From: Lentisphaerae bacterium GWF2_50_93
GTDB lineage: Bacteria > Verrucomicrobiota > Lentisphaeria > Victivallales > GWF2-50-93
Length of the DNA: 64,000 nt
NCBI GenBank assembly: GCA_001804815.1
Contig: MHBI01000087.1
Span: 9,558 to 73,557 of the forward strand
Direction: 5' to 3'
Part shown: positions 3,821-60,982 of the stretch, piece by piece
Layout: each line of letters starts with the position of its first letter
How positions within the stretch are numbered: the stretch's first letter is position 1
Notes under the pieces: generated by a model
Seen by the model: only the letters and a program-made list of their open reading frames with translations
Database searches by the model: none
Told to the model about the DNA's origin: nothing
Made by a program: the position numbers and the translations under genes

Positions 3821-3822
3821 TT

Positions 3823-6770: not shown

Positions 6771-7655
6771 TCAGTCTCCGAGGTTGATTCCTGAGTTGAT
6801 GACTGAGTTGTCGGCCTTGTTCTTGACGCCGTCGTTGGTATTGATGATCGTGGAATTCTTGATGTCGGCGTTGTTCGCCTGGATTCCTGAGTTGATCAGG
6901 GCCTTGTTTGTGGCCTCGTTCGTGACATCCTTGTTCGTGTTCTTGATTGTCGAACCGTCGGTGACGTTCGCGTTGTTGAGCTCGATTCCGGAATTTATCT
7001 TGGAACCGCCCTTCGCCGTATTTTCAACCCTGCCGATGTTCTCGTTCGTTATGGTGGAACCGTCCTTGATCGTCGCCCCGTTGGCTTCGATTCCAGAGTT
7101 GATCTTGGACTTGTCCTCGGCGATGTTGGTGACGTTCTGGTTGGTGTTCTCGAGCTTGGAACCGTCGAGTATCTTCGCTCCGTTGGCCTCGATTCCGGAA
7201 TTGATGATCGAGCCGCCCTTCGCCGTGTTCTTGACGTTTGTGTTCTCATTGATCAGCGTTGAACCCTTGATCGTCGCGTCATTTGCCTCGATGCCGGAAT
7301 TGATCTTCGATTTTCCTTCGGCCTTGTTGATGACTTCAGTGTTCTTGTTGTCTATCAGCGAGCCTTCGGTCACCTTTGCGTTGTTGAGCTCGACGCCGGA
7401 GTTGATCTTCGAACCCTCCTTCGCCTCATTCGTCACGCGGGTGTTCTTGTTGTAGATTTCGGAATCCTTGATCTCGGCGCCTACCGCCTCAATGCCGGAA
7501 TTGATCTTGGACTTCTCAGTTGCCGTGTTGTTTACATCCTTGTTTTCATTCTCGATTGTGGAGTTCTCGACGGTTGTCTTCGGCAGGGCCATCGCGTACG
7601 AAGCTGCGAAGAGACCGGCGACCATCAGGACCAGAGTCGTTTTCTTCATTTTCAT
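6771..7655 (-). CDS. Secreted repeat protein, 7.5 x ~33-aa Asn/Ser/Thr/Gly-rich imperfect repeats
   Basis: Signal peptide ...AASYAMA-LPKTTVENSTI. Units start SKINSGIEAVGAEIKDSEIYNKNTRVTNEAKEG, SKINSGVELNNAKVTEGSLIDNKNTEVINKAEGK, and so on. AAGGAG RBS. The start may be the second ATG at 7649. Confidence 0.75.
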   Translation of the reverse strand: MKMKKTTLVLMVAGLFAASYAMALPKTTVENSTIENENKDVNNTATEKSKINSGIEAVGAEIKDSEIYNKNTRVTNEAKEGSKINSGVELNNAKVTEGSLIDNKNTEVINKAEGKSKINSGIEANDATIKGSTLINENTNVKNTAKGGSIINSGIEANGAKILDGSKLENTNQNVTNIAEDKSKINSGIEANGATIKDGSTITNENIGRVENTAKGGSKINSGIELNNANVTDGSTIKNTNKDVTNEATNKALINSGIQANNADIKNSTIINTNDGVKNKADNSVINSGINLGD

Positions 7656-21605: not shown

Positions 21606-21670
21606 GGAGCGCCGGCATCTTGCCGGCAACTCTTGAGTTTCATTTATAGCCGGCAAGATGCCGGCGCTCC
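21606..21670. repeat. Perfect 21-bp inverted repeat with a 23-nt loop
   Basis: ggagcgccggcatcttgccgg (21606-21626) pairs with ccggcaagatgccggcgctcc (21650-21670). It sits 19 bp upstream of the oxidoreductase start codon. Confidence 0.85.
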
Positions 21671-21713
21671 GTGAACATTTTTCAGTCAGCTCAGATATTC
21701 TTTCATGTAAAAC

Positions 21714-21825
21714 TTCGCCTGTTCGACCGTTCGACCGTTCGACCGTTCGACCGTTCGATTGTTCGATTGTTCGATTGTTCGATTGTTCGTCTGTTCGATT
21801 GTTCGATTGTTCGATTGTTCGATTA
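21714..21825 (+). repeat. 8-bp microsatellite TTCGAYYG x 14
   Basis: The units in order are ttcgcctg, ttcgaccg x4, ttcgattg x4, ttcgtctg, ttcgattg x3 and ttcgatta. The array ends 11 bp from the stop of the FGE-domain gene. Confidence 0.95.
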
Positions 21826-27598: not shown

Positions 27599-27627
27599 TT
27601 GAAAATCAACGGGTTTGCTGATAAAAT
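27599..27627 (+). promoter_or_regulatory. Sigma70-like promoter TTGAAA-N17-TAAAAT for the giant gene
   Basis: The -35 ttgaaa is at 27599-27604, the spacer is 17 nt, and the -10 taaaat is at 27622-27627. It lies about 40 nt upstream of ATG 27669, which has an AGGGGG RBS. Confidence 0.4.
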
Positions 27628-27668
27628 ACGTTGCGCTTAATTGTAAATATTGCCTAGGGGGCCTTCTT

Positions 27669-36600: not shown

Positions 36601-39600
36601 CAGCCGATGATCCGAACGCGAACGGGCTCATAGCCTGGTGGAAGGCGGAGGACAACGCTATTGACAGCATCGGCGGACATAATGGGACGATGCAGGGAAA
36701 TGCGAATTTCGCAGATGGCAGGATAAGCAGGGCGTTCAGTTTCGATGGAGACGGGGATTATGTGTCGGCGAGTGATTCCTCGTTCCCTGCAGGAAACAGC
36801 GCCAGGACTATTTCCATGTGGATCAAGGCTGGACCCGCCGTATATGACAAATATTTTTTCAGTTATGGAACTTCTGCCGGAAATCAGAGATTTTCGCTTG
36901 GTGTCAAGGATTACCTCTATGCGGAAAACAGCGGTAGCGGTTTGATGGGCAATACGGTCATCAATGATAATGTCTGGCACCACATAACTGCGGTATGGGC
37001 AAGTCCCTCACTGAAAATGTATGTGGACGGAGTTGAACAGGTGAACACTGTCATAGTCGAATGGCCAACGGAAATGAATACGGTTCTGAACGACGGGATT
37101 AACATTGGCAGAGTGAACGGAGGGGGATGGGATTTCACAGGTCTGGTTGATGATATCAGGGTCTACGGCCGTGCGCTGTCAGCAGGAGAAATCGCCGACA
37201 TGTCCGGAATGGTTCCTGACGCATTCAACTTCACGGCGCAGACTGGCGTTCCAAGGAACACTAGCGTCATATCCAACGTCATAACAGTCGCTGGCATTTC
37301 TTATGCCACATCCATCGGTATTACCGGAGGTGAATATGCGGTATCCACGGATGGTGGTTCCATCTGGGGCGACTGGACGAGCGCATCCGGATCCATCAGC
37401 CTGAACGACAAGGTCAGGGTGAGGCAGACTTCGTCGGCCAGCTATTCTACAACGACCACTGCAACTCTCACGGTCGGCGGTGTTGGCGCAGGCTTCAATG
37501 TCACAACATTAGAGGCCGGATCCGGCAACTGTGCGCAGTTCACGGCCGGCTCTAACAGCTATATCGCCGTGCCAAGTTCCGATGAGCTGAAAGTCACCAC
37601 ATCCATGACGGCTGAGGCCTGGATCAAGCCGGCCGCAGGCTGCAAGGAATGGGCTCTGGTCCTGGGCAAGCAGTTCAATCCGGCCGATGATGACCCTTGG
37701 TACTGTTACCGGATATGTGCGAGCTACTTCAGTAGCTTCCCCGGCAAAATCAGCTTCAATGTGGCGCCTGAGGGGAGCGGCGAAGTCGGTGTCGCCTCCA
37801 CCAGCGATATCCAGCTGGATATATGGACCCATGTTGCCGGCGTCTACGACGGGGAAACCTTGAGGATATACATCAACGGGGAATTGGAGGATTCAATTGC
37901 CCTGTCCACACCCCTGAGGACGTCCGACCTTCCTCTCTATACAGGAAAAGCTCCCTGGACCAACAACAACAATTTCAACGGCCGCATGGATGAGATCCGG
38001 ATATGGAACGTAGCCCGCACCGAGTCGCAGATAAAATTTGCATTGAACCGGAGCCTAGTTGGCGATGAGGCGGGACTTGTTGCATACTGGCCGTTCAATG
38101 ACGCTGTAGGCTCAGCCACTGCTGACGATTCTTCACCGGACAGCAACATCGGTACCCTTTACAATGGAGCCGCGATCGTCGCAGACTCCGACGCACCGCT
38201 GGGCAGCCTGATCTCCTGGTGGAAGGGTGATGGCAATGCCTTGGACAGCGTCGGCGGCCATCATGGTTCGATGCAGAATGGCGCGTCGTTTGCAACAGGC
38301 CGGATTGGACAGGCGTTCAGCCTGGCAGGAACAGGGGATTATATGGATGCAGGCTCGGACGATGTCTTCAACTTCAACAGCGGAGCTGGGAACTTCACTA
38401 TCAGCGCATGGATAAAGCCGTCGACTCTGGAACGGACCGGAGCTTCTGCATCAACGATAATTACCAAGGCAACCATCTTTCCCGCCTTTAGCGGATGGTC
38501 ATTATACGTATATCCTGATGGAGCAATGAGCTTTGGTGGTGCCGGAGTATGGGAAATGCCGCGTTCGGCTGTTGGAACAATAAGCATCAATCAATGGTCC
38601 CATGTTGCCGTCACCAGAAATGGTTCCACATACAAGCTCTACAAGAATGGCTCGGAAGTCGCCTCTGCAGATCATGGAAACATTGAAACCTCGGCTTCAT
38701 CTCTTAAGATCGGCAGCGAATTTACCGGGCTTAATGCAAATTCCGACCAGTGCGATCTCAGGTTCAGCGGTCTCATAGACCAGGTCGAGGTCCATGGCCG
38801 TGGAATGTCCGCCGCGGAAATCGCAAATATGTATGAACAGGCCGACACGACGCCCGATGCATTCATCTTCACCGCGCAGGACAGGATGCCTCCAAACACA
38901 TTAATCGTCTCCAGCCCGATCACTGTCGCCGGCATAAATGCATCGACAGAAATAAGCATCGCAGGCGGCGAATACTCAGTATCCACCGATGGCGGTGCGA
39001 ACTGGAGCGCATGGACAAACCTTTCCGGCGAATTGAGCCTGAACAACAAGGTGAAGGTGCGTCAGACCTCGTCCGCAAGCAATTCGACGAAGACGACCGC
39101 AACGCTGACTATTGGCGGCGTATCCGCCGGTTTCGATGTAACGACGGCAGACGCGGATGATCCGAATGCCAACGGCCTGATCGCCTGGTGGCAGGCGGAG
39201 GACAATGCCCTGGACATCATCGGCGGACATGATGGAACCATGCAGGACGGTGCGACTTTCGCAAACGGCCTGGATGGACAGGCGTTCAGCTTTGACGGGG
39301 CTGGCGATTATGTCTCAGCCAGTGATTCTTCGTTCCCTGCTGGAAACAGCGATAGGACCATATCTCTGTGGATAAAGACAAGCCAGGTTGGAGAAAAATA
39401 CTTTTTCAGCTACGGGAGCAATGGTTCAAATCAGAGATTTTCACTCGGAATGTATAATAATCGCTTTCATGTGGAAAACTACAACAGCGGTTCACATGCT
39501 GAGACTGTCATCAATGATAATTCATGGCATCATGTGGCTGCGATATGGGGGAGCTCATCACTGAAACTTTTTGTGGATGGAAAAGAGGAGCTGTTGACCG

Positions 39601-42600
39601 TAGTTGCTGCGTGGCCCCCAGCGCTGGACACAGTCTTGACCGGCGGGGTAAATATTGGCAGAATAAACGTTTTGTCGGGATATGATTTCAATGGTCTCGT
39701 CGACGATGTGAGGATTTACAACCGCGCGCTTTCCGCGTCGGAGGTCACGGAGGTGGCCGGCGATCTTCCAGCATCAGGCCTACGTCTCTGGCTGAAGGCT
39801 GACACTGGAATTACAAAGGATGGCTCAGGCCTGATCAGCAGCTGGGAGGACAGGAGCGGCAACGGTTTCGACGTAGGACAGGGGGATGGCGCAAAGAAGC
39901 CCTTGCTGGTTTCGGATGCCGTTAATGGAGAGCCGGCGATCAGGTTTGACGGTGACAACGACTATCTGCAGACGGCCGGGGCGATCACGCTTCTCCAGGG
40001 AACTGCGAACTTTAGCATGTTCGTAGTTACAAAGCCTGGAGCAACCCAGAAGACGCATGCCGACATCATTGACTACGAGCATGGTAGTAATATAAGCTAT
40101 GTATTACAGCAGCTTGTTGACAATACCAACCAGTTCGGCCTTGCCAACTGGCAGCCTTTGACGTCAAGCGCCTACCAGATACATTCCGGGGTCTACGTTA
40201 ACAATACCAGCTATACATCATACTTGAATGGCGTGAACAGCCTGCAAACCACCGATCTCAATGATATCAGCTGTCCTGAGCCTAGGACGTTCACTGTCGG
40301 CAGCAAGTCGCTGGAGGCATTCCCGCGCCAGTTCAACGGCGATGTCGCGGAAGTGATCGTATATAATACTCCTCTGTCGGATTCCGACCGCCAGAGGGTC
40401 GAGAGCTATCTGATCGCGAAATATGGAATAGATATGGTGCCGGAGGCATTTGCATTTGTCGACCAGACCGGCGCACCTCTAAATATCCTTACTGATTCCA
40501 ATGCAGTGACGGTCACAGGCATCCACCATGTGGCGGAAATTCATGTCACCGGCGGCGAGTACCAGATCAATGGCGGAAGCTGGACTTCTGATGCGGGGAC
40601 CGTGCGCTTGAATGACTCCGTCATGGTCCGCGTGAAAAGCGCCGCAGCAACCTACACTACGGTCGAGGTCACTCTGACAATAGGAGGTGTTTCCGACACA
40701 TTCTCAGTGACCACCGGGCATACCCTGACGTACACGGCTGGCGCAAATGGTTCGATAACCGGAGATGTCAGCCAACTTGTGGCGCATGGAAGCGATGGTA
40801 CGGCAGTGACAGCAGGCCCAGATGCCGACTGTTTCTTCATGGGTTGGAGCGATGGTGTGATTACGTATGAACGCCAGGACGTGGATGTGCTGGCCGACAT
40901 CAATGTCACCGCGGATTTCCTCGCTAGCGGCACTGTGATAGGGCCGATAGACCTGTCCCAGGGCGAGAAGAAGTACTACCAGATCCGCGATTTCGCCGGA
41001 CAGAACTACCTGAAGGTGGAACTGGGCGGATTCACCGGTGACTGCGATCTCTATGTGATGAACGGCGATGTCCCGACCTTCCAGCTGTATACCGCCAAGT
41101 CTACGAATGGCGGCAACAACACCGAGAGTCTGACGATGTATGACGGTCTTGACGGGGACTGGTACATAATGCTCCACGCCTATGAAGGTTTCACCGGAGC
41201 GAACCTGACCATCACATACAATGACAATAGCATAACTGAACCGTTGACTCTTGCCGCCGTGGCCGGGGATCCCGCCGACAAGAAGATTGTTTTGACCTGG
41301 GATCTGCCCGCAACCGGCGTCGCCACAGGCTACGAGGTTTTCCGCTGCAGCACAAACGATCTCGGGCTTGCCGACCAGATAGCCGACATCGGTGCCGTCA
41401 CAAGTTACACGGACGAGTTCACGGCCGCCGGCTACTACGACTACTTCTACTGGGTCCGTGCGTATGATGCGACCGGCACCTGCAGCAGCTTCAGCGGAGC
41501 CGTGGAAGGAAAGACCACAACAATGCTGTCGAATGTAATTCAGCTCAAGAGCGGTACGGCGATGCTTGCGACAGGCGCGGCCGGTTCGGTCAAGATTTAT
41601 TCAATCACAGTTCCAGACGCCCAGACCCTGCTTGAGATCAAGGTTTCCGGCGGAACCGGAGACTGCGATTTCGATATTTTGAATCCACCCCCAGCCAGTG
41701 AGACCGTCAAGCGCGTCATAGGCGGCGGCAGCGCCGCTCTTGCGCAGTTCGCAAATCCGGCTGCAGGAACCTGGAAGATAATACTCTACGGCCGCAGCAA
41801 CTACACCGGAGTGTCCGTGATGGCGAAATACAGCAAGCAGACTGCGGTTCCTGCCGCGCCTTCAGGAGTGAAAGCGAGCGACGGACTGTTCTCCGACAGG
41901 ATAGTGGTGACGTGGACGGCGACGCTGGGTGCTACAAGCTACTTGGTGTCGAGGAACACCTTGAACTCACTGACAGGAGCGACCGAAATCGGAGAGACAT
42001 ATGACAACGTGTTCGAGGACAAGTCAACGGTGGTGACTGACGAAGATCCCGGAAAGCCTTTCTACTATTTCGTGAAGGCGATTAATCCGAAGGGCACCGG
42101 AAAGCCCAGCGCCCTCAACTCCGGCTACATCATGAAGAACCCGCCGGCCCCCGGAGCGCCGTTGGCATCTGACGGCACATACTTCGACAGGATCCGCGTG
42201 ACGTGGACGAAGGTTGTCGGGGCGTCAGTCTATGAGATATACAGGGCTGAGACTGCGACCGGAGCCAGGACTTTAGTCGGTGAGACTTCCGCTCTGTTCT
42301 TCGACGACTACGGAGATAAGATATTGCCCGAGGTGGATGCGAAGGGTGTTCATACCGCAAAGAAATACTACTACTGGATCGGCGCGAGAAATTCCAACGG
42401 GCCCGGGGTGGTAGGCGTAAAGTTCAACGACGGCTACCTGTCGAAGAAGGGGCCGGCGACAATCACCGCAAGCAACGGGACGTATTCGGACAGGATCATT
42501 GTGACATGGGCCGCAGTCCCAGGCGCAACAGCTTATGACGTCTACCGTTATACTGACACAAAATTCATTCTGAACCAGGTTAAGGTTGGCGACGCAGTCG

Positions 42601-44030
42601 CGGTGCTGGAATACGAGGACACTTCAGCGGACGTCGATAAACTCTACTATTACAAGGTGAAGGCGAAGTACGGATCTGGCAGCCCGTTTGTGCATAAGTA
42701 TGACAGCGATTTCAGTCTGGCCGGCGCGATCGGCAAGATGACGACAGGCAAGCCCAATCCAACCGCTACTGGAATCGCGGTCGATGGGACTCCTACGGCA
42801 AGCCAAAGCGATGAGAAGTATCACTCGCTGTACTTCTCCGCCGATGTTCCAATGGGAACTACCAGGCTGGTTGCAACCCTCAACGGGGTTCCGCCTTCAG
42901 TTGGAACCGCGAATGACTGTGATCTGTTTGCGAAGTTCGCAAACTTCCCGACGAAGGCGTCGTACGGGGCGAAGGCTGTAGAGAACCTGGTAGCCAAGAC
43001 TGAAATACTGACGGTCAGCAATCCAGCGTCCGGAACATGGTATTTCCTGCTCTATGGGACGACGGCATACTCGAACGTCACGCTGACGGTGAAATGCTAT
43101 TCCGTGACCGACATAGTTCTCACCCAGGTTCCTGCAAATGATCTTGCGGTTCCGTTCACGGCTGTCTTCAAGGGCAAGGTGGTTGATGAAGTTGAGGCAG
43201 GAATACCCAGCATGGTTGTCCAGGTCAGAAATCCTGTTACTGGGTTGACAACTTCCCTGACGAAGACCGATGCGAAGGGATGTTTTGCTTATTCGGCCCT
43301 GATCAACTCCGAGGGTGAACATACGTTCGACTTCTTCTTTACGACAATGCCTGACACCGCTAAAGGCACCGCGAGCCACACGGTAGCAACCAGGAAAGGC
43401 ACCTCTGATGCAACATTCGACATGTCCGCGTACATTCCGGCAAGCCCAGTGGAGGACGCTGACATGGTTCACATCGCCGGCCTGCAGAACTTCCTCGACA
43501 CCCGCAACGGCTGGGACGAGGATCCGATAGATGGCGACTATGCGACAATGTGGATTGACTATACGATCGCAAAAGCGAAGGATGATGCGAAGCTCGCAGC
43601 CAAGCTCGATGAAGGACTCTATATGTTCTTCTACGGCGTGGAAGGCGCGGGAGTCGGAAACGACACGACTGCGAATCTGGCGCTTTCTGCGGTGCCGTTC
43701 GTGGTGCATGTGGAATCATCGAAGAAGGTCGTTGTCCTGGATAAACTGAAGATACTCGGCATCATCGACGACATGCAAAAGACCGACATCGGATCCGGGA
43801 AGATCGGGATAGTTGCAATTGCCTCGCTCAATGATCCCGACGAGGGCGGAACTCCATCAAACATCTCGTTGGCGGCATCAGAACAGCTAGAGCTTCTTGC
43901 GAAGATCGCGGACGGCGATGCCGTACTGGTTGACGACGGCAAGTATGGGGATGTCCTCACGAAGCTGGTCACTGTCACCCTGGACAACGCCAGGAAGATT
44001 AATGTCGCAGTCGCGGCGTTCGTGAAGTAG
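27669..44030 (+). CDS. Giant (5453-aa) secreted modular adhesin-like surface protein
   Basis: I place the start at ATG 27669 (RBS aggggg, signal peptide MSKKIFLFVLLAFLYPLFSICQ) rather than the TTG at 27615. Approximate module spans follow.
- 7 FG-GAP units (FGxSVASAGDVNGDGYSDVIVGA), nt 28340-29620.
- Right-handed beta-helix with GGAI-type repeats ending LADNGGETPT...DIGAFEL, nt 29980-31170.
- InlB-B-like repeats (YTVNY...GYHFVNWSD).
- At least 7 LamG-type modules (GLIAWWKAEDNAxDSxGGHxGT...RIYNRALS).
- 7 x 60-aa WDKTYGG...DGGY...SGDKSE...DYWVVK repeats.
- Calx/cadherin-like modules, 3 PPC (TGDCDLYV) and 4 FN3-like (DRIxVTW) modules. Confidence 0.9.
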   Translation: MSKKIFLFVLLAFLYPLFSICQEYQPSFHKKNDQRSVSSDSSWYFFNCMQNLKSTIDADGWRLESDTKRKNEPSWKWLYSLKSLGRDTEDKISFSNPENKDISWSDAETISIDRTVLVEWYKNSSAGIEQGFTIKEKPQGKGLLKLSAQISTDLIVSSSSNDQITFSTVNSDVLKIGGLCVRDSRNSKLPSVFVYNSEQSSITVSIDDSSAVYPIVVDPLASSPSWTAESNKAFAEFGMSVASAGDVNGDGYSDVIVGAIEYDNGATSGKVYVYFGSATGLSATPAWTMESDQADAFFGCSVSSAGDVNGDGYSDVIVGASNYSNGQAGEGRAYVFLGSVSGLSATPAWTAESDQSDAAFGGSVASAGDINDDGYSDVIVGAPFYSNGQASEGRAYVFLGSASGLSATPAWTAESDQSDAAFGGSVASAGDINDDGYSDVIVGAPFYSNGQASEGRAYVFLGSASGLSATPAWTAESDQIGAKFGDSVASAGDVNGDGYSDVIAGASNYSNGQLGEGRAYVFLGSASGLSVTPGWTAESDQEYAFCGYSVASAGDINSDGYSDIIVSAWKFTNGQINEGRVYVYNGSSSGLSATPAWTAESDQAESRFGNSVASAGDVNGDGCADVIVGADCYDNAEENEGRAFAYYGSRNNITYSNTAFIESQQNNGMVDNSMPVVLTLTGDTFAANMDEDFTMTGKVTVSNLPAGMTASIIKTSDTTATIQIWGSAAAHDKNDDISNLTIAFQDSAFTGGNAAAITNSTKNDLVIDFFGLTVSSTADTGAGSLRQRIADAVAGDVIGFANNLGTITLSSEITIDKSIDFDSMSPEDVVISGNNACRIFKISGTGTLEVFLSGLTLQNGAAQDGAAIYINGADTAEKTVVIENCIIKNNNATRYGGAIFADSPSDITSNLVITCSTLTGNKVLSGANSVYGGAIYGTAHPSSTIPSLLNVVLIQSTLSGNTAEATGSMSAYGGAVCMKNIAGLVFAPLFIFNSTLSSNVATAATAANGKCGGIYLENIDGMPADANYSATFHSSVIASNTHTGATFFGPDIYKGTSVTIDTRAGNVGSSFNLIGTSTGGHAITNGINNNIVAAITGLAALADNGGETPTMAITSGSNARNTGSIDALEAFILSRGIVLDIAYDQRGYGYDRELDAAPDIGAFELMDPLVQHTVAFNVFEGGTISGTASQNVNHGSDCTAVEAVASTGYTFRNWTGPNFYSISNPLLVEEVVEDLAITANFDINSYTVNYLVGENGSISGDTTQNVYYGYDSTPVFAVADSGYHFVNWSDLSIENPRSDNITGVLSVTANFAANDISSGLVAYYPFSGNANDMSGNGHNGTINGTVTSVADHLTDPGKAYSFGDNNYIEVPHAADLSPANQITICAWVKLDSTNGIQPIVNKEDSASGPGYTLEFVSGTNNVALIIDGLDLTTNAVAVPIGEWHYVTAVFDGTKGNVFVDGVGAEWVYKTGTIPATTSPLNIGRDMYNNRFIDGCIDEVRIYNRALAPEEFQMLNSSSYHVISASAGTNGSIAPSGAINILEGDSRTYTITANQYYHVADVLVDGSSEGDITSYEFTNVNSSHTISATFAHDTATITMAVDIGGGSTTPTAGPHTVDTETPVDILATPWAGYYFVNWTTSGNCTFNDTNSASANATLSANAWVIAHFALNTPGFTLSKSTSIVSENAGTDTFTAVLSTQPTSNVVFDLSSSDAGQATVSPATLTFTTANWNTPQEVTVTGVNDDVLGNHSVTITVAVNKPSSPPNYIAVANKTVSVTCRDDEFFSMPMDMAWDKTFGGALSDKIYSMIQTSDGGYILGGPSSSNMSGEKSENSRGLNDYWVVKIDASGNKEWDMTFGGSNDDGLHSLIQTSDGGYLLAGESSSNISGDKSENSNGLTDYWVVKLDSNGNKLWDKTYGGSNNDICFKAIQTSGGNFLLFGSSNSNVSGDKSENAKGGYDFWIIKIDSSGNKIWDKTIGGNGADYPASIIETKDGGFLLSGQSTSDISGDKSEDSRGGFDYWIVKADSSGFKQWDKTYGGNDVDNLWSIIQITDGSYFLAGESSSNISGDKSESSKGFMDYWVVKTDSVGNKIWDKTYGGTNYDNLSSVIQSTDGGYFLSGSSMSNISGDKTENSRGASDFWIVKIDAGGNKQLDKTIGGSLEDEIGKSIYTSDNCVFLGGASLSNISGDKSENGRGGNDFWIVKLGYSKYNVSKKAITVAENGGSDTFNVVLNAKPATDVVFDVASSNTDEATVSPAQLTFTNANWNTPQAVTVTAVNDSKLGTDSANVTVSINTASSDDSFDDVPNSIVAITCTNDDVAGMTLSKSNMTIGENGGQDTFTVVLTAQPVSDVVLDVSSSATGQATVSPSSLTFTNSNWNAPQTVTITGVNDSLIGDHAATVTVSVNDASSDDGFDAVANKTVAVTCTDNDYTLTYSADANGSIGGIASQIVDGGANGSQVNPNPNVGYHFVNWSDASTADPRTDTNVAGNITVTANFTINTYSVVFAAGAHGSLTGDDSQAIDHGADATAVTAVPDGGFQFLGWTGTITSVVNPLTLTNVTGNASLTANFASTSLSNDTLVEHQAAGTLVGTLSTVHSNVGEDIVYTLVSGTGSDDNASFTIDGNSLKAAAIFNSYVKNNYSIRIRSTDESNLYIERQLTVFIVPAPLAPLSGLVSTWKAEDNAEDSVGSNDGTEVAGATYANGIFGRAFSLDGTDDAIRVPADASLNVTSFTMSAWIKPNVSALMAVFEWNRESDVVPAFGPELIWTDNKLWGNITEQSETHIESATGLIQAGTWSHVAYAYDSASGNSAIYLNGSQVGAGNVGAPGMHTEYPVYIGSRPFAHVGAGGTFFFNGLIDEVSLYDRALTATEVGDLSRQVPDAFSFAAKTGMPVSTVIVSEPVAISGITVQSAISVAGGEYSISTDGGSNWSAWTNTAGLVNPDSLVMVSQTSSAANSTLTSATLTIGGVSASFDVTTAAADDPNANGLIAWWKAEDNAIDSIGGHNGTMQGNANFADGRISRAFSFDGDGDYVSASDSSFPAGNSARTISMWIKAGPAVYDKYFFSYGTSAGNQRFSLGVKDYLYAENSGSGLMGNTVINDNVWHHITAVWASPSLKMYVDGVEQVNTVIVEWPTEMNTVLNDGINIGRVNGGGWDFTGLVDDIRVYGRALSAGEIADMSGMVPDAFNFTAQTGVPRNTSVISNVITVAGISYATSIGITGGEYAVSTDGGSIWGDWTSASGSISLNDKVRVRQTSSASYSTTTTATLTVGGVGAGFNVTTLEAGSGNCAQFTAGSNSYIAVPSSDELKVTTSMTAEAWIKPAAGCKEWALVLGKQFNPADDDPWYCYRICASYFSSFPGKISFNVAPEGSGEVGVASTSDIQLDIWTHVAGVYDGETLRIYINGELEDSIALSTPLRTSDLPLYTGKAPWTNNNNFNGRMDEIRIWNVARTESQIKFALNRSLVGDEAGLVAYWPFNDAVGSATADDSSPDSNIGTLYNGAAIVADSDAPLGSLISWWKGDGNALDSVGGHHGSMQNGASFATGRIGQAFSLAGTGDYMDAGSDDVFNFNSGAGNFTISAWIKPSTLERTGASASTIITKATIFPAFSGWSLYVYPDGAMSFGGAGVWEMPRSAVGTISINQWSHVAVTRNGSTYKLYKNGSEVASADHGNIETSASSLKIGSEFTGLNANSDQCDLRFSGLIDQVEVHGRGMSAAEIANMYEQADTTPDAFIFTAQDRMPPNTLIVSSPITVAGINASTEISIAGGEYSVSTDGGANWSAWTNLSGELSLNNKVKVRQTSSASNSTKTTATLTIGGVSAGFDVTTADADDPNANGLIAWWQAEDNALDIIGGHDGTMQDGATFANGLDGQAFSFDGAGDYVSASDSSFPAGNSDRTISLWIKTSQVGEKYFFSYGSNGSNQRFSLGMYNNRFHVENYNSGSHAETVINDNSWHHVAAIWGSSSLKLFVDGKEELLTVVAAWPPALDTVLTGGVNIGRINVLSGYDFNGLVDDVRIYNRALSASEVTEVAGDLPASGLRLWLKADTGITKDGSGLISSWEDRSGNGFDVGQGDGAKKPLLVSDAVNGEPAIRFDGDNDYLQTAGAITLLQGTANFSMFVVTKPGATQKTHADIIDYEHGSNISYVLQQLVDNTNQFGLANWQPLTSSAYQIHSGVYVNNTSYTSYLNGVNSLQTTDLNDISCPEPRTFTVGSKSLEAFPRQFNGDVAEVIVYNTPLSDSDRQRVESYLIAKYGIDMVPEAFAFVDQTGAPLNILTDSNAVTVTGIHHVAEIHVTGGEYQINGGSWTSDAGTVRLNDSVMVRVKSAAATYTTVEVTLTIGGVSDTFSVTTGHTLTYTAGANGSITGDVSQLVAHGSDGTAVTAGPDADCFFMGWSDGVITYERQDVDVLADINVTADFLASGTVIGPIDLSQGEKKYYQIRDFAGQNYLKVELGGFTGDCDLYVMNGDVPTFQLYTAKSTNGGNNTESLTMYDGLDGDWYIMLHAYEGFTGANLTITYNDNSITEPLTLAAVAGDPADKKIVLTWDLPATGVATGYEVFRCSTNDLGLADQIADIGAVTSYTDEFTAAGYYDYFYWVRAYDATGTCSSFSGAVEGKTTTMLSNVIQLKSGTAMLATGAAGSVKIYSITVPDAQTLLEIKVSGGTGDCDFDILNPPPASETVKRVIGGGSAALAQFANPAAGTWKIILYGRSNYTGVSVMAKYSKQTAVPAAPSGVKASDGLFSDRIVVTWTATLGATSYLVSRNTLNSLTGATEIGETYDNVFEDKSTVVTDEDPGKPFYYFVKAINPKGTGKPSALNSGYIMKNPPAPGAPLASDGTYFDRIRVTWTKVVGASVYEIYRAETATGARTLVGETSALFFDDYGDKILPEVDAKGVHTAKKYYYWIGARNSNGPGVVGVKFNDGYLSKKGPATITASNGTYSDRIIVTWAAVPGATAYDVYRYTDTKFILNQVKVGDAVAVLEYEDTSADVDKLYYYKVKAKYGSGSPFVHKYDSDFSLAGAIGKMTTGKPNPTATGIAVDGTPTASQSDEKYHSLYFSADVPMGTTRLVATLNGVPPSVGTANDCDLFAKFANFPTKASYGAKAVENLVAKTEILTVSNPASGTWYFLLYGTTAYSNVTLTVKCYSVTDIVLTQVPANDLAVPFTAVFKGKVVDEVEAGIPSMVVQVRNPVTGLTTSLTKTDAKGCFAYSALINSEGEHTFDFFFTTMPDTAKGTASHTVATRKGTSDATFDMSAYIPASPVEDADMVHIAGLQNFLDTRNGWDEDPIDGDYATMWIDYTIAKAKDDAKLAAKLDEGLYMFFYGVEGAGVGNDTTANLALSAVPFVVHVESSKKVVVLDKLKILGIIDDMQKTDIGSGKIGIVAIASLNDPDEGGTPSNISLAASEQLELLAKIADGDAVLVDDGKYGDVLTKLVTVTLDNARKINVAVAAFVK
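28689..29105 (+). repeat. Perfect in-frame 186-bp tandem duplication (2.2 copies) inside the FG-GAP region
   Basis: Unit starts (tctggactttcagccacccccgcctggacagc...) are at 28689, 28875 and 29061. By eye, copies 1 and 2 are identical base for base and encode ATPAWTAESDQSDAAFGGSVASAGDINDDGYSDVIVGAPFYSNGQASEGRAYVFLGSASGLS twice. Confidence 0.9.
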
Positions 44031-44068: not shown

Positions 44069-44392
44069 ATCCTCCGAAGGACTCGGGGTTCTTGTTCTAA
44101 GAGGAACGCCGACCTCCAGGTCGGCAAGAAGCCGGCCTGGAGACCGGCGCTCCTCTTGGAAATCAAAGAACGTGCCGATACAATAATTCTTCCGCCTAAA
44201 GGCGGTACTCACAGCGCCTTTTTCCTGAGTACGAACCTCGGTCTGTAAAATTAACGCGTTGTTTAGATAGATATTGAGGCCAAGTGGAAAAATAGAGTTT
44301 GTAATATGACTGCAACTCTTGGTCTGCAGGACTAACGCGCTTGGAGTACCGGCTTCAGCCGGAATATTAATTACTATTATTCTCGTCTATGG

Positions 44393-44467
44393 GCATTTGA
44401 AGTAGGTACATGCTTTAGCTTGTACCAGGAATTCAAGAATGCTACAGGCTGAAGCCCGTACCTACTT
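44393..44467. repeat. TIR-bounded hairpin element (short copy), downstream flank of the giant gene
   Basis: Sequence is ggcatttgaagtaggtacatgctttagcttgtaccaggaattcaagaatgctacaggctgaagcccgtacctactt. The termini aagtaggtac and gtacctactt are inverted repeats. It abuts the stop of the small-subunit gene at 44469. Confidence 0.75.
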
Positions 44468-44468
44468 G

Positions 44469-45230
44469 CTACTCGATTCTTCCCAGCAGGCGCAGCAGGC
44501 CGTCGAGGATCGTTGCGGGATGCGGAGGGCATCCGGGAATGTAGAGATCGATCGGCACCATGTTCTCAACGCCGTTCTTAGTCTCGGGATGCCCCTTGTA
44601 GATTCCACCGGAGATCGCACATGCGCCGACGACAATAACAAGTTTGGGTTCGGCGACGGCATCATATGTTTTCTTCAGGGCGAGAAGCATGTTTTTTGTG
44701 ACAGGACCGGTGATGAGAAGTCCGTCGGCATGGCGCGGTGAAGCTACGAACTGTATGCCGAACCTTCCAAGATCCCATGCCAGAGTGTTGAGCACATTGG
44801 TGTCGGCTTCGCATGCGTTGCATCCGCCGGCGCTGACTTCGCGCAGCTTCAGGGAACGTCCGAAGATAGCCTTTGACTTGTCTTCAAGCGCCTTCGCAAG
44901 CTTCAATGTCTTGCCTTCAAGCTTCAGGTCCGCCCTGTTGTTCACCGACATCGCATAGTTCCTTGAAAAGCTGATTGTGCCTGATGAACATGCCCTCGCG
45001 CATTCACCGCAGAAGATGCAGATGCCGAGGTCGATCGTGACTCCCTTGTCGGTTTTTGTGATGCAGGAGACGGGACATGAGTTGACGCACTTCATGCAGT
45101 TGGCGCCATCACACTTCTTCCTGTCAATTATCGGAAGTCCGAGATAGCGTTCCGGCATCTTCATTTCCCTGCTGGGAAACGGAGCCGTCCTGTATCCTTG
45201 TTTTATACGAGCTGCAATCTCTTTCAGCAT
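44469..45230 (-). CDS. Hydrogenase-small-subunit/NuoB-like protein with fused N-terminal 2x[4Fe-4S] ferredoxin domain
   Basis: I trimmed the start to ATG 45230 (GGAG RBS 7 nt upstream). The extension to 45308 in the ORF track is translation of the 42-bp repeats. The ferredoxin motifs are CDGANCMKCVNSCP and CIFCGECARAC. The NuoB/HycG-like part is AGGCNACE...SPRHADGLLITG...GACAISGG...YIPGCPP. Confidence 0.85.
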   Translation of the reverse strand: MLKEIAARIKQGYRTAPFPSREMKMPERYLGLPIIDRKKCDGANCMKCVNSCPVSCITKTDKGVTIDLGICIFCGECARACSSGTISFSRNYAMSVNNRADLKLEGKTLKLAKALEDKSKAIFGRSLKLREVSAGGCNACEADTNVLNTLAWDLGRFGIQFVASPRHADGLLITGPVTKNMLLALKKTYDAVAEPKLVIVVGACAISGGIYKGHPETKNGVENMVPIDLYIPGCPPHPATILDGLLRLLGRIE

Positions 45231-45246
45231 TGAAATTCTCCAGTAG

Positions 45247-45554
45247 TTACAGAGGCACAAAGGCACAGAGTTTCTAATAGTGGCAAAGTGACAGAGGCAC
45301 AAAGGCACAGAGGCACAGAGTTTATAACAGTGGCAAAGTTACAGAGGCACAGAGGCACAGAGTTTTCAACAGTGGCAAAGTTACAGAGGCACAGAGGCAC
45401 AGAGTTTTCAACAGTGGCAAAGTTACAGAGGCACAAAGGCACAGAGTTTTCACAGAGGCACAGAGTTTTCAACAGTGGCAAAGTTACAGAGGCACAAAGG
45501 CACAGAGTTTTCAACAGTGGCAAAGTTACAGAGGCACAAAGGCACAGAGTTTTT
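45247..45554 (+). repeat. About 42-bp tandem array x 7 (ttacagaggcacaaaggcacagagttttcaacagtggcaaag)
   Basis: Seven head-to-tail units with small indels. There are no unique spacers. The array begins 16 nt upstream of the small-subunit start codon. Confidence 0.9.
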
Positions 45555-45590
45555 AATATAATTTATTATTTTATTCATTTTCTTTACCTT

Positions 45591-45792
45591 CGGCACTTTG
45601 TGCCTTCCCAAAACACTTTGTGCCTCTGTGCCTTCTATATACTCTGTGCCTTCCCAAAACACTTTGTGCCTCTGTGCCTTCTAAAACTCTGTGCCTTCCC
45701 AAAACACTTTGTGCCTCTGTGCCTTCTAAAACTCTGTGCCTTCTTGGAACTCAAAACACTTTGTGCCTATGTGCCTTCTATATACTCTGTGC
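45591..45792 (-). repeat. Related tandem array in inverted orientation (about 4 units, actttgtgcctctgtgccttcta...ctctgtgccttcccaaaac)
   Basis: It shares the ggcacagaggcacaaag and ggcacagagtttt cores with 45247-45554 on the opposite strand. An AT-rich 35-bp centre separates the two arrays. It abuts the stop of the four-helix-bundle gene. Confidence 0.85.
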
Positions 45793-46155
45793 CTATTGCT
45801 TTGACTGATTTATCTTATCGCATAAACTGCTGAGCATTCTTTCAATTTCACGGGATGATTCATAAATCCTCTCAAAAGATTTCTTTTCCAGGAATCCGAG
45901 GTTGAAGGATATTTCCAGCTGGGTCTGGGCTTCGAATATAGATCCCATTGATATTTGGAGGAAACGCATATAGTCTCCAGTTGAATTTCTTCCATATCCT
46001 TCAGCTATATTGCTGGGAATTGATACTGAGCTTCGTCTTACTTGCATTGTCAAACCATAGATTTCCTCTTTTGGGAAATCAGCGGTAGACTTGTAGACTT
46101 CCGTAACGAAGCTCATTGCTTTCTGCCAAACGATCAAATCCCTATACGTTTTCAC
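45793..46155 (-). CDS. Four-helix-bundle protein (23S rRNA intervening-sequence protein family, Avd-like)
   Basis: YRDLIVWQKAMSFVTEVYKSTADFPKEEIYGLTMQVRRSSVSIPSNIAEGYGRNSTGDYMRFLQISMGSIFEAQTQLEIS matches the family signature (VWQKA...FPK.E...L..Q.RR...SI..NIAEG.GR). Confidence 0.85.
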   Translation of the reverse strand: MKTYRDLIVWQKAMSFVTEVYKSTADFPKEEIYGLTMQVRRSSVSIPSNIAEGYGRNSTGDYMRFLQISMGSIFEAQTQLEISFNLGFLEKKSFERIYESSREIERMLSSLCDKINQSKQ

Positions 46156-46203
46156 TTCTCTCTTTCCCCCGTTATTTAATTTTATACATTTTCTTGATTT
46201 ACT

Positions 46204-46290
46204 ACTTTGTGCCTCTGTGCCTTTTTCTTTCTTTTGGATTCCCTTCCAAAACTTTGTGCCTCTGTGCCTTCTATATACTTTGTGCCTTTT
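46204..46290 (-). repeat. Third copy block of the gtgcctctgtgcc repeat, same orientation as 45591-45792
   Basis: Sequence is actttgtgcctctgtgcctttttc...ccaaaactttgtgcctctgtgccttctatatactttgtgcc. It lies between the large-subunit stop (46293) and the four-helix-bundle gene start (46155). Confidence 0.8.
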
Positions 46291-46292
46291 AT

Positions 46293-47816
46293 TTACAGGT
46301 CATGCCCGCAGTACGACAAGTTGAAACTCTTGTTGCACAACGGGAAATTATATATCTGTTCGTTCTTCAGGACATTTGCCAGGGCGAACCAGTTGTGGAA
46401 GGACGGATCCACTATCTTGTAGTGTTCGAAATGTCCTTTCGAGTCGGTGATCGCCGTATGGCATATCTCGCCGCGCCAGCCTTCGGCAAGCGTGACTGTC
46501 AGCGAATCGGGTTCGAGGTTACCGCATTCCTCCAGTATTTTCCCTTCCGGCAGGTTTTCCAGCTGTTCCCGGATGTACTTGACTGAATTCCTGATCTCGA
46601 GCATCCTCACGAAGGCGCGTGAGAACACGTCTCCGGTATGGTAGGTCGAAACTGAGATCTGAGAGAACCTGAAAATTCCAGATGGAAGATCGTACCTGAC
46701 GTCGCGCTCGATTCCGCTGGCGCGTGCCGCCGGACCCACGGCCCCGATCTGCATGCAGAGTTCCCTGCTGAGTTTTCCGCATTCCTCGAAACGGCTCTGT
46801 ACCGAGGGATTGTCCCAGAGCAGATCAACCGCGTTTTCCGTGTCCTTGAAGGAGGCATCGAGTCTTTTCAGTATCTCGGATTTCATTGCATCATCGATGT
46901 CGAACATCACTCCGCCGGGCCTGACAACATTCCTGCCAAAGCGGTTTCCACAGATCAGGCCGGTGATGTTGAGAAAGTCGCCGCGTATCCTTCCGCAGAA
47001 GGATGAGGTGGGCAGATAAGCGACGTCGCTGGCAAGTGCGCCAAGATCGCCGGTGTGGTTTGCCAGGCGTTCGAGTTCGAGAAGTATCCCGCGTATCGCC
47101 TGGGCGCGGAGCGGGACGCTGCATTTTGAGAGGGATTCGAGGGCTTCGCAGTATGCCGTCGCATGTCCTATGGTCGTGTCCCCTGCCGCGGTTTCCATGT
47201 AATGGACCGTTTTAATATCGGGTCCGCCTACAAGCTTCCTTTCGATGCCGCGGTGCTGGTATCCGAGCGAGATCTCAAGGTTGAATACCGTCTCTCCATG
47301 GCATTGGAAACGGAAATGGCCCGGCTCGATTATTCCAGCATGGACGGGGCCTACTGCGACTTCATGGATCTCCTCGCCTGTGACCTTGTAGTAATCAGTT
47401 ACGCCTGGCAGGATCTCGTTGTCAGCTTTCCGTTTCCAGGCATCCCTTTCCTCCGAGTATGCCTTGTGGAAGCGTATGGGTTTGAGCCAGGGATGTCCAG
47501 CTGGAATGACACCCCATTGCTCGGCGATTTCACGTTCGAACCAGTGGGCCTGGGGGCAGTCCGGCGTGAATGACTTGTAGGTGTCTCCGACTTCGGTCGA
47601 CAGCAGACAGAGGTTTCCCTGCAGGTCTTTTGCGACAATCGCAAAAATCCTTATCATGTTGTATTCCACCGGCATTCCGAACATCGACGAGATCCGTCCG
47701 TTCTTTCCTGTAAGCACCACCAGCGTCTCCCTGAACTCCTCGATATCCAGGACCGGCACTCTTTCAAGCTTCACTGTTTCGCCGTTGAAAATATTCATGT
47801 ATGGTGAAAGTTCCAT
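46293..47816 (-). CDS. NuoC-NuoD/HycE-like 'large subunit' lacking the NiFe-ligand cysteines
   Basis: GPVHAGIIEPGHFRFQCHGETVFNLEISLGYQHRGIE is the group-4 hydrogenase/NuoD signature. The position of the N-terminal RxCGxCxxxH motif reads ETAAGDTTIGH (nt 47163-47195). The position of the C-terminal DPCxxCxxR motif reads NLSYCGHDL (within 46296-46334). Confidence 0.9.
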   Translation of the reverse strand: MELSPYMNIFNGETVKLERVPVLDIEEFRETLVVLTGKNGRISSMFGMPVEYNMIRIFAIVAKDLQGNLCLLSTEVGDTYKSFTPDCPQAHWFEREIAEQWGVIPAGHPWLKPIRFHKAYSEERDAWKRKADNEILPGVTDYYKVTGEEIHEVAVGPVHAGIIEPGHFRFQCHGETVFNLEISLGYQHRGIERKLVGGPDIKTVHYMETAAGDTTIGHATAYCEALESLSKCSVPLRAQAIRGILLELERLANHTGDLGALASDVAYLPTSSFCGRIRGDFLNITGLICGNRFGRNVVRPGGVMFDIDDAMKSEILKRLDASFKDTENAVDLLWDNPSVQSRFEECGKLSRELCMQIGAVGPAARASGIERDVRYDLPSGIFRFSQISVSTYHTGDVFSRAFVRMLEIRNSVKYIREQLENLPEGKILEECGNLEPDSLTVTLAEGWRGEICHTAITDSKGHFEHYKIVDPSFHNWFALANVLKNEQIYNFPLCNKSFNLSYCGHDL

Positions 47817-53949: not shown

Positions 53950-55206
53950 TTAGGTGTGAAAAGCTGTCGACATGCTTTCAATCTCGCGTCGATGAATTTT
54001 TAATCCAAGTGCAATTTTGTTCCAGTTCCCGACAGCCTTCCTAATCTCATTTACAAAGCTCTTGGCCTCCGGCATATCCAGATGGAATTTAGGTGCGACA
54101 GACAAGGCCAGATCGAAGTCGAGGGAATTGTCGTCCGAAGATATGTTCAGTGTAAGACCTCCTCCAAGAGAATTGGGGTTGATGTCGTAGGCCGGGGAAA
54201 GGGTCCATCCCTGTTGCATCAGCAGAAAACCATGGTTGCGCAGGTGGTCATCGGTGTTTGAGACTGCTACGTTGAAGACTATGCGTTTCCATAATTCTTC
54301 CAGGTCCTTGGCGGGGCTTGAGCCGTGCTGGATGATGAATTGCGCCAGATCAAGGTAGCAGCATCCGGTTTCATGGTTTTCACCGTCCATGCGCCCAAGC
54401 AGGGTCATCGCCGAGGCAAAATGTATTCGTCTGCCTGATTTCCTGTCGAAACGTCTGCTCAGGAAAGTGCTGCCATGTCTGGAAAAATTATCCATCCGGC
54501 ATTCCGGAATCTTCAGACCAACGCTTTTGGCCAATTCGTGAGCGACCATTTCCCATGCTCCCATATTGACAGCATCCTCACGGCTTGGGAATTTGGCAAT
54601 CCATAGGTTTTTGTCATTGTCCAGAACATTCGCCTTTGGGCGGGCACCTCCAAGGGATGAACCTGGCGCAAGGAGCATCGCAAGCCATTTGTCATGTTCA
54701 TCGTCGGTGCCTGATTCATCCTCGTAATGGCGGCAGGCCGACTCCAGCTCATTCAGGGATGACCATGGTGGAGCCGGAAGCTCCGAATCATTGTTGACAA
54801 AGTCTCTGGATTCATCCAGTTTGAAACGGAGGGCGCCCATCCTGGTGGTATCATGTACACCGAGCAGATAGTCCGACTCGAGCAGCGGTCGGGCCGGTCG
54901 GCGCTCTCGACGTGCACTGATAGCTTCATGCCGTCGAATCAGCTGGCGCCCCCATCGGTCCGGGGATGAATCCAGGAAAATACCGAAATTGTTCTTTTCA
55001 CGATCTGCATATTGCCTTCCTGGATAAAACTGCAAATCCGGATCCAGCATTCTCGCGGATTCCGATCTGAGCCATGCGGATGTGAACTCAAAGGAAAATA
55101 TTTCCTTGCCCCGGGCCACATCGACATTAAGGCAGCCCATTTTTACAGGGCTGTCTTTCTCCGGCCAGTCGGCATAGACATAAATTGACTTTGAGCTATT
55201 GTTCAT
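53950..55206 (-). CDS. hipA: HipA-family serine/threonine kinase toxin
   Basis: N-terminal coupling domain (IYVYADWPEKDSPVKMGCLNVD...). SLGGARPKANV is the P-loop-like motif. VSNTDDHLRNHGFL is the catalytic loop. Confidence 0.85.
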   Translation of the reverse strand: MNNSSKSIYVYADWPEKDSPVKMGCLNVDVARGKEIFSFEFTSAWLRSESARMLDPDLQFYPGRQYADREKNNFGIFLDSSPDRWGRQLIRRHEAISARRERRPARPLLESDYLLGVHDTTRMGALRFKLDESRDFVNNDSELPAPPWSSLNELESACRHYEDESGTDDEHDKWLAMLLAPGSSLGGARPKANVLDNDKNLWIAKFPSREDAVNMGAWEMVAHELAKSVGLKIPECRMDNFSRHGSTFLSRRFDRKSGRRIHFASAMTLLGRMDGENHETGCCYLDLAQFIIQHGSSPAKDLEELWKRIVFNVAVSNTDDHLRNHGFLLMQQGWTLSPAYDINPNSLGGGLTLNISSDDNSLDFDLALSVAPKFHLDMPEAKSFVNEIRKAVGNWNKIALGLKIHRREIESMSTAFHT

Positions 55207-60862: not shown

Positions 60863-60982
60863 TTCGTCTGTTCGATTGTTCGTCTGTTCGATTGTTCGTC
60901 TGTTCGATTGTTCGTCTGTTCGATTGTTCGTCTGTTCGATTGTTCGATTGTTCGATTGTTCGATTGTTCGATTGTTCGATTG
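60863..60982 (+). repeat. 8-bp microsatellite TTCGWYTG x 15
   Basis: Ten units alternate ttcgtctg and ttcgattg, then five are ttcgattg. Orientation matches 21714-21825. The array ends 26 bp before ATG 61009, with TATAAT (60989-60994) and AAGGAG (60995-61000) in between. Confidence 0.95.

Follow-up and report, generated by a model that had tools for sequence, protein, structure and literature searches.

The stretch of DNA analysed here, hereafter the window, comprises 64,000 nucleotides of Lentisphaerae bacterium GWF2_50_93 (contig MHBI01000087.1, positions 9,558 to 73,557 of the forward strand). On its minus strand lies an operon for a Hyf/Hyc-type [NiFe] hydrogenase, in which the large- and small-subunit genes are separated by a cassette made of a gene for a 120-aa protein of a four-helix-bundle family and of sense and antisense arrays of short tandem words (Table 1). 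The operon gap, the open reading frame (ORF), the repeat blocks and the inverted array had been described in an initial annotation of the sequence, and we found all of them where it had placed them. The operon is of the hydrogenase-4 / formate-hydrogenlyase type, since the genes upstream encode HyfB/F-like antiporter subunits, a HyfC/NuoH-like subunit and a HyfE-like membrane subunit; homologues of the large subunit are named hydrogenase or Ni,Fe-hydrogenase III large subunit in their sources. The ferredoxin part fused into the small-subunit gene is of the 2x[4Fe-4S] type, and this gene is also called as 253 aa in another assembly of the same locus (L001). The stop codon of the large-subunit gene directly adjoins the cassette and, the ATG of the small subunit being at 45230, the cassette starts at 45231.

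Table 1. Features of the hydrogenase junction, in window coordinates, listed in the direction of transcription
Feature	Coordinates	Strand	Description
Large-subunit gene (host)	46293..47816	-	NuoC/D-like, Hyf/Hyc-type [NiFe] hydrogenase; 507 aa; PF00346 E=2.7e-38, PF00329
5' arm	46204..46290	-	two composite sense units with AAGGCACAGAGGCACAAAG; repeat families D2-D4, inverted pairs I4-I8
AT-rich leader	46156..46203	-	purine-rich ribosome-binding stretch GGGGGAAAGAGAGAA directly 5' of the GTG start
S23p / 23S_rRNA_IVP-family gene	45793..46155	-	120 aa; GTG start; co-oriented with the operon
Sense array	45591..45794	-	~4.2 units of 45 nt, AGGCACAGAGGCACAAAGUGUUUUGGGA... on the transcript; begins at the ORF stop codon
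AT-rich loop of the 3' hairpin	45555..45590	-	36 nt; homologous to the loop of the ORF-less L124 hairpin (alignment)
Antisense array	45245..45554	-	at least 7 units of 42 nt, CUCUGUGCCUUUGUGCCUCUGUAACUUUGCCACUGUUGAAAA; complementary words CUCUGUGCCUUUGUGCCUCUG
Unpaired spacer	45231..45244	-	small-subunit Shine-Dalgarno GGAG at 45241-45238, 7 nt before the ATG
Small-subunit gene (host)	44469..45230	-	fused HyfH-like ferredoxin and HyfI-like (NuoB-like) parts; 253 aa; PF01058 E=1.7e-28, Fer4, NF005012, NF009053

The arms are built of inverted arrays of the purine-rich words AGGCACAG/AGGCACAA and their complements, the 8-nt words being nested within units of 42 or 45 nt. The sense array downstream of the ORF is a direct repeat of the 5' arm; TRF delimits it at 45595-45794, with a period of 45, 4.2 copies and 91% matches (TGTGCCT on the plus strand), and detects the 42-nt period of the antisense array at 45245-45553 (AGGCACA on the plus strand). 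In a repeat search of 45100-46400, the inverted pairs I4-I8 are 22 nt long with 95% complementarity, and the last word of the antisense array ends 16 nt 5' of the small-subunit ATG. The 17-mer TTGTGCCTCTGTGCCTT, allowing up to two mismatches, occurs 13 times in the window, each time within the cassette, for 0.02 copies expected. The GC content of the cassette is 38-46%, versus 51-58% for the flanking genes.

The initial annotation counted seven units in the antisense array: the inverted orientation stands, but the count does not, as one of the seven is truncated to 19 nt. L001 and L002, which are further assemblies of this locus, have runs of N within the 42-nt array, so that seven is a lower bound, and L002 implies at least nine. 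Only this copy number is unreliable; an assembly artefact was ruled out, the cassette being present in three assemblies of one population (the locus is also found in GCA_003516325.1 and in an ENA assembly) and in orthologues. The ORFs that span repeats (e.g. 45224-45523, 45450-45662 and 45288-45833) were taken as repeat translations, and the “ORF” of the loop displays non-synonymous differences between the window and the orthologous locus L124.

The encoded protein and the predicted fold

The 120-aa protein passes the curated thresholds of the family hidden Markov models PF05635 (E=1.5e-39; 134.9 bits for a cutoff of 33.8) and TIGR02436 (E=6e-38; 129.4 bits for a cutoff of 24), i.e. 23S_rRNA_IVP or S23p, and scores 149.2 bits with NF008911 (cutoff 137). 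The conserved motif GxxRxxxSxxxNxxE, which Zhang et al. give for the family (PMC3936711), reads QVRRSSVSIPSNIAE in our protein, where Q replaces the first G and the R, S, N and E positions keep their register. Among solved structures, compared by sequence similarity only, it resembles PDB 2GSC (E=3e-23) and 2RLD (E=2.5e-7). The family matches confirm the link with the proteins of 23S rRNA intervening sequences (IVSs) made in the initial annotation, and this link extends further than it supposed: the flanking repeats form the arms of the element, as in the IVS of Coxiella burnetii. Neither the PADLOC defence models nor a protein-mode search of the phage collection returned a match for the protein.

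Comparing the ORF with its orthologue at the Victivallis locus L206 gives a non-synonymous divergence (dN) of 0.108 and a synonymous divergence (dS) of 1.38, hence an approximate dN/dS of 0.079; the dN is close to that of the large subunit for the same pair (0.104). The partial gene of L125 did not enter into this estimate. The ORF is under purifying selection, and the 120-aa protein is therefore maintained by selection.

PF05635 proteins are homologous to the Avd proteins of diversity-generating retroelements (DGRs), also four-helix bundles, and no other accessory domain is as common near DGR reverse transcriptases (RTs; PMC10053308) as the PF05635-like ones, so that the cassette might be a DGR remnant with an orphan Avd. 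The protein does match the bAvd model (E=3.6e-4), but weakly, at 21.4 bits for a cutoff of 40. No RT appears in the gene table within 10 kb on either side, nor in the 20 scanned ORFs, each of 230 aa or more, from outside the operon, seven of which have no Pfam match at all; none is ever present at the orthologous junctions. Likewise no pair resembling a template and a variable repeat was found in 45100-46400, where the repeat search returned only word arrays. With neither RT nor repeat pair in the regions searched, we rejected this explanation, which is hardly credible here, in agreement with the initial annotation that had already set DGRs aside.

Folding of the transcript predicts a 3' hairpin, with a minimum free energy (MFE) of -236.7 kcal/mol (z = -11.4 versus shuffles). 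A hairpin of more than 150 bp between the two arrays had been proposed from the start; the stem is indeed predicted, but not as a perfect duplex, since the arrays differ in unit length (45 versus 42 nt). In the fold of the whole cassette (MFE -383.8 kcal/mol) the 5' units pair with distal antisense units and the ORF lies in a large loop. For the Victivallis orthologue L206, the MFE and centroid structures alike (z = -3.6) place the ORF between a 5' arm and a distal 3' arm that are paired with each other. The GGAG-bearing spacer is single-stranded in the MFE structures of the cassette and of the 3' hairpin.

On the operon strand of the cassette, a consensus scan found no sigma-70-like promoter, with the reservation that this consensus may not suit Lentisphaerota. 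The terminator scan of the same strand gave a single weak terminator-like match, located inside the ORF, and the totals of the promoter and terminator scan were not above those of shuffles. Rfam, searched in E-value mode over 44300-47000, detected no rRNA; its sole match, plant MIR841 (24.5 bits for a gathering score of 200, E=0.04), is spurious and caused by the long hairpin.

Orthologous operons and the age of the element

We compared the junction in the closest large-subunit homologues, viewed in their contigs. It is empty in L122/L123, whose large subunit is 88% identical to that of the window: 21 nt only separate the two genes (TAAATTTTCGGAGAAAATTTATTTATG). This clean junction supports the “inserted cassette” of the initial annotation; an insert common to all orthologous operons, which would rather have indicated an integral component, was not seen. 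In L124 (91%) the junction is a 186-nt ORF-less hairpin, whose 5' words and loop align to the window. In L125 (85%) words are followed by the start of a PF05635 gene (VKTYRDLIVWQKSMNLV...), and then by the end of the contig. L206-L210, a Victivallis metagenome-assembled genome (MAG) and related ones (83%), have the ORF, single-unit arms and a small local 3' hairpin; the protein of their junction gene, of 117/122 aa, is 85% identical to that of the window. A homologue of the 5' arm is present in L124, L125 and L206. L211 (76%) displays a 704-nt ORF-less junction with five sense units of ~62 nt, a loop and six antisense units, the latter of 42 nt and homologous to the 42-mer of the window. Finally, the Limisphaerales outgroup L213 (63%) has a 92-nt spacer with an unrelated heptamer-word hairpin (GATTTAC...).

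This small outgroup hairpin, at 4524-4617 of L213, is formed at the large/small-subunit junction from the heptamer words GATTTACGATTTACGATTTTTGATTGACGCG ... CGCGTCAATCGAAAATCG. Another junction, of 311 nt, is found on the P0005 contig. Related genomes (that of the P0005 contig, and L211 at 6840-7524) have a second, convergent hydrogenase operon, in whose gene table a PF05635 gene of 119/120 aa is again located between the large- and small-subunit genes.

When the large subunits are arranged in a neighbour-joining tree, the empty operon and the ORF-less L124 are flanked on both sides by element-bearing operons. All the junction states being found among the orthologues, this tree indicates that the element is old at the junction and was lost several times. 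The colonisation of an operon junction claimed in the initial annotation is right as to insertion, but it is not recent: the orthologous gene exists in the Victivallis MAGs and in L125, and the tree agrees with them. On the sequences compared, the simplest reading would be one old insertion, after which different lineages lost the ORF, lost the whole element cleanly, or amplified the arms; repeated insertion at the same hydrogenase junction is a conceivable alternative. The ORF-less relics would result when the direct sense repeats that flank the ORF recombine, and the higher-order units of 42/45 nt would be amplified by slippage or unequal recombination within the word arrays. The ORF-less hairpins of L124 and L211, added to the unrelated hairpin of L213, suggest that a hairpin at the large/small-subunit junction is tolerated by the operon, or useful to it.

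No target-site duplication was seen when the empty junction and the filled ones were compared by eye. An integron gene cassette was also considered and rejected: there is no integrase within 10 kb on either side, and tandem-word repeats stand on both sides of the ORF, instead of a single attC-like palindrome.

Word arrays with and without the gene

A scan of metagenome contigs gave 80 loci with relatives of the protein (47-71% identical), 71 of which had enough flank for scoring. By eye, nearly every one of these genes has an array of purine-rich 7-8-nt words on its 5' side and a reverse-complement array on its 3' side. The words vary by locus (AGGCACAG, AGGCATAA, AGGCACTA, AGGTTCAA, AGGGTTCA, GCGGTTGGCA, TAGGGAC, AGGGATC, GGTTTAG, AGGCAGT, also GGCACA, GGCATA, GGTTCA, GGGTTCA, GGGACT, GGGATC and others). 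When the 5' flank is aligned locally with the reverse-complemented 3' flank, the 71 loci score 33 on average, compared with 16.2 for flanks taken 400 nt further out, 18.9 in direct orientation and 19.2 when flanks are paired across loci; 75% of the loci score above the 95th percentile of the distal control. The period of the words is 8 or 7 nt and is common to both arms in 17 of 19 loci, the arms have a median of ~3-3.6 copies, often 4-6, and the 5' arm is 73% purine. That the words differ while the arms match amounts to a covariation, which favours the stem.

The neighbouring genes are mostly co-oriented with the relative: in 60 of 63 loci for the upstream neighbour, in 49 of 53 for the downstream one and in 42 of 47 for both. 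Such co-orientation, together with the tight packing, speaks for elements that depend on transcription by the host. The same arm-ORF-arm layout is found around relatives of the gene across many lineages. At 46268-46627 of plasmid pPg_01 of Pseudanabaena galeata, the gene lies between cas6 and cas4, with 14 AAAAGCT and 9 AAAAGCC heptamers around it; at 3776-4126 of pCC7120alpha of Nostoc PCC 7120, it is followed by CTTCTGC/CCTCTGC heptamers. In the literature searched, which left most subscription journals outside its scope, we found no description of this layout outside rRNA; the packaging of the PF05635 gene family in inverted word arms is apparently widespread and undescribed.

Two observations stand beside these. 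In pPg_01 (L214, 1270-1990) an AGCTTTT/AAAAGCT hairpin with ~14 sense copies precedes the gene and 9 AAAAGCC copies in the same orientation follow it, an arrangement that mirrors the window. Besides, for many close relatives of the 120-aa protein the only contigs known measure 0.5-2 kb, as would fit flanking word arrays that break short-read assemblies; the genomic contexts of the family are probably under-sampled.

The arrays could also be the binding sites of the protein that they flank. A homopentameric toroid would then take, on RNA or single-stranded DNA, about one 7-8-nt word per subunit, and would autoregulate its own translation or shield the stem; such a self-regulating module would not conflict with the stem model. 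Avd proteins, which are related, are DGR accessory proteins and act on nucleic-acid complexes. The number of words per arm goes in the same direction, as does the position of the 5' array, which often ends 0-20 nt before the ATG and hence overlaps the ribosome-binding region. The relatives XCC0516/2GSC form homopentameric rings, according to the work cited on this point in PMC4990558. Word type moreover tracks protein divergence; simple co-inheritance, however, predicts this co-divergence equally well. On the other hand, ORF-less hairpins persist and even amplify: the amplified hairpin of L211 shows that the arms can persist without a protein encoded in cis. We regard word binding as a rather unlikely explanation of the arrays.

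The words also occur without the gene. The exact 17-mer turns up in 119 or more stretches of representative genomes; these belong to many phyla, and one MAG often has it on several contigs, while about 70 matches would be expected for a random 17-mer in the genome collection; almost all of these matches sit in intergenic runs of further TGTGCC words. A PF05635-like ORF is found at 6 of the 119 motif loci, in five of them within ~110 nt of the motif. The initial annotation had asked whether repeat and gene co-localise, and had taken repeats scattered independently of such genes as speaking against its cassette; formally, scattering is what these counts give in other genomes, although some of the other loci are ORF-less hairpins or ORF remnants of an element of this type. 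Gene-less hairpins account for 29 cases with antisense words at most 200 nt away. In the decayed elements of L005, L016 and L114 the 5' arm and the first ~12 codons of a PF05635 gene (ATGAAAACGTATAGAGA..TGGCAAAAA, MKTYRDL.VWQK) are fused directly to the 3' arm CTTTGTGCCTCTGTGCC, and L114 has an in-frame stop. Gene-less arrays are probably relics and not independent repeats; at some of these loci they look like remains of the same type of element.

Solo sense words (AAGGCACAGAGGCACAA) are also found 0-50 nt before the start codon of ordinary genes (L003, L004, L014, L054, L055, L110). These genes include a CoaE-like one (MIVGLTGGIASGKD) and a HisF-like one (MLSKRIIPCLDV), and no antisense array follows them. 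Arms bracketing ordinary genes in general were considered and rejected, because only 3 of 48 solo arrays before ordinary genes are matched by an antisense array after the gene, one of these three being a PF05635 gene.

A mobile element acting at the DNA level could account for part of these data: it would be MITE-like (miniature inverted-repeat transposable element) or cassette-like, its inverted arrays serving as terminal repeats for a transposase or recombinase supplied in trans, and the RNA stem would be a by-product. The presence/absence polymorphism with a clean empty site fits this, as do the GC content of the cassette, ~12-15 points under its flanks, the ORF-less derivatives that resemble non-autonomous elements, and the near-identical words with ~65-70% identical proteins in many phyla, which suggest horizontal spread. 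By contrast, the absence of a target-site duplication between empty and filled junctions does not fit, and no transposase or integrase was found within 10 kb on either side. The arms are simple tandem words that vary by locus, unlike conserved terminal inverted repeats; at the hydrogenase junction the element looks vertically inherited; and a strong co-orientation with host genes would be unneeded by an element living on DNA only. We consider such an element unlikely.

Could the cassette be neutral junk prone to slippage, i.e. a decaying selfish ORF and relic repeats in a permissive spacer, with no effect on the operon? The copy number of the arrays is unstable or uncertain, TRF detects near-identical 103-nt duplications, relics are frequent, and the Coxiella ORF is reported to degenerate (PMC4990558). 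A dN/dS of 0.08 over a divergence with dS above 1 is nevertheless at odds with a decaying ORF. Nor would junk be expected to keep the complementarity of its arms with different words across loci, or a hairpin at the same junction in five related lineages, to which the Limisphaerales outgroup adds its unrelated heptamer-word hairpin. This explanation thus appears quite improbable.

Elsewhere in the window, tandem arrays of another 8-mer, TGTTCGAT (variants CCGTTCGA and TGTTCGTC), are found at 21713-21824 and 60863-60982, with ~13-14 copies each. Both are in spacers of co-oriented genes: oxidoreductase/FGE-sulfatase on the minus strand, and CDP-alcohol phosphatidyltransferase/epimerase on the plus strand. 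The second one ends ~20 nt before the ribosome-binding site of the next gene, like the antisense array of the cassette, and no PF05635 ORF is nearby; these arrays may be relic arms of an element with another word type. A near-perfect GC-rich inverted repeat, GGAGCGCCGGCATCTTGCCGGC ... GCCGGCAAGATGCCGGCGCTCC, adjoins the first array at 21607-21672. Convergent with the operon, a giant ORF of 5471 aa (27615-44030) has FG-GAP, Laminin_G_3 and Flg_new_2 domains and internal tandem repeats of 186/372 nt at 28370-29526. Just upstream of the HTH/PTS_EIIA_2 (helix-turn-helix) regulator gene of the operon, a gene for a HipA_C-domain kinase and a small HTH gene (53950-55206 and upstream) look like a toxin-antitoxin pair.

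A proposed read-through element and its known counterparts

We thus favour, as the probable though far from certain explanation, an IVS-type element lodged in an mRNA spacer: a promoter-less S23p ORF within a long stem, which the operon would read through and whose stems would be cut by RNase III. The architecture, the presence/absence polymorphism, the age at the junction, the selection on the ORF and the layout among relatives are established; from them the following course of events is proposed. The operon transcript would run through the cassette; the 5' arm would pair with the surplus antisense units so as to enclose the ORF, and 3' of the ORF a local hairpin with ~200 nt per arm would form from the sense and antisense arrays, the amplified 42/45-nt arrays lengthening the duplex. 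As for the ORF-bearing IVSs of 23S rRNA, RNase III would cut these duplexes. It would release hyfB-G, ORF and small-subunit pieces, each with a terminal stem remnant, so that decay and translation of the small-subunit mRNA would be uncoupled from the rest; the ribosome-binding site of the small subunit would stay single-stranded, to judge by the predicted folds. The cassette may control the stoichiometry of the small subunit, as the initial annotation suggested.

Several points weigh against this reading. Ribosomes translating the ORF would be in competition with the long-range stem. The solo sense arrays upstream of ordinary genes in other phyla are unexplained by the stem model. The analogy with Coxiella may be incomplete, the S23p ORF appearing to be in decay and untranslated there but not here. 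Instead, the long imperfect palindrome could have its role as DNA. The promoter result depends on a sigma-70 consensus that may be unsuited to this phylum, and the dN/dS is approximate, since a dS of ~1.4 is near saturation.

Proteins of the PF05635/TIGR02436 family are plentiful throughout the bacteria, and their placements in operons (cas, hydrogenase) have so far been read as functional associations. At this locus and among its relatives, the gene is accompanied by a defined nucleic-acid layout, namely arms of inverted tandem words as in the ORF-bearing IVSs of rRNA, and a vague “hypothetical protein” becomes a testable system, with cultured carriers in the plasmids of Nostoc PCC 7120 and Pseudanabaena galeata. 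A wider idea, which we put forward as tentative and possible at best, would make the PF05635 genes generally the cargo of a class of hairpin elements, co-oriented and intercistronic, with rRNA helices as a special case; the ring protein would read its own words, one per subunit, and the stems would be co-opted as processing or stability signals. If true, each such element, across many phyla, would be a promoter-less ORF between inverted arrays of 7-8-nt words.

Among known repeats, the short tandemly repeated repetitive (STRR) heptamers of cyanobacteria are tandem 7-nt words in intergenic DNA, and the cyanobacterial four-helix-bundle genes found in this analysis are flanked by such heptamers; to our knowledge, STRRs are not described as paired inverted arms around a gene. 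The intercistronic hairpins of repetitive extragenic palindromes and bacterial interspersed mosaic elements (REP/BIME) set differential mRNA stability within operons, e.g. malE-malF. The likeness lies in the mode of action only, a repetitive hairpin spacer DNA able to uncouple neighbouring cistrons, whereas REPs are single short palindromes without ORF.

Closer by their gene, the 23S_rRNA_IVP genes of cas operons are, like ours, small co-oriented PF05635 genes wedged between two operon genes. In its section on this family, PMC3936711 counts 18 of them inside cas loci, e.g. between cmr3 and cmr2 in Pleurocapsa; that section reads their placement as a functional association with cas, and flanking word arrays are unmentioned in it. 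ORFs of the 23S_rRNA_IVP family are also found in rRNA insertions of bacteria of the candidate phyla radiation.

The closest counterpart is the ORF-bearing IVS of 23S rRNA. That of Coxiella burnetii, 428 nt in helix 45, carries an S23p ORF that seems decaying and untranslated, within a 28-bp terminal-inverted-repeat stem cut by RNase III, and has two to three tandem GACAGAT heptamers just 5' of the ATG, whose copy number varies with the strain (PMC4990558). The cassette differs by its place, an intercistronic spacer of mRNA instead of helix 25 or 45 of 23S rRNA, by its arms amplified to 42/45-nt units, and by the second, local hairpin 3' of the ORF; its ORF is under strong purifying selection, unlike that of Coxiella, reported to decay and probably to stay untranslated, and the cleavage by RNase III demonstrated in Coxiella would here operate by analogy. 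On the other hand, both have an S23p / PF05635 ORF in the loop of a terminal-inverted-repeat stem—for the cassette in the predicted fold—as well as tandem short words by the ORF in variable copy number, which for the cassette differs between assemblies and species, and both lack a promoter and are transcribed, presumably in the case of the cassette, from the host unit.

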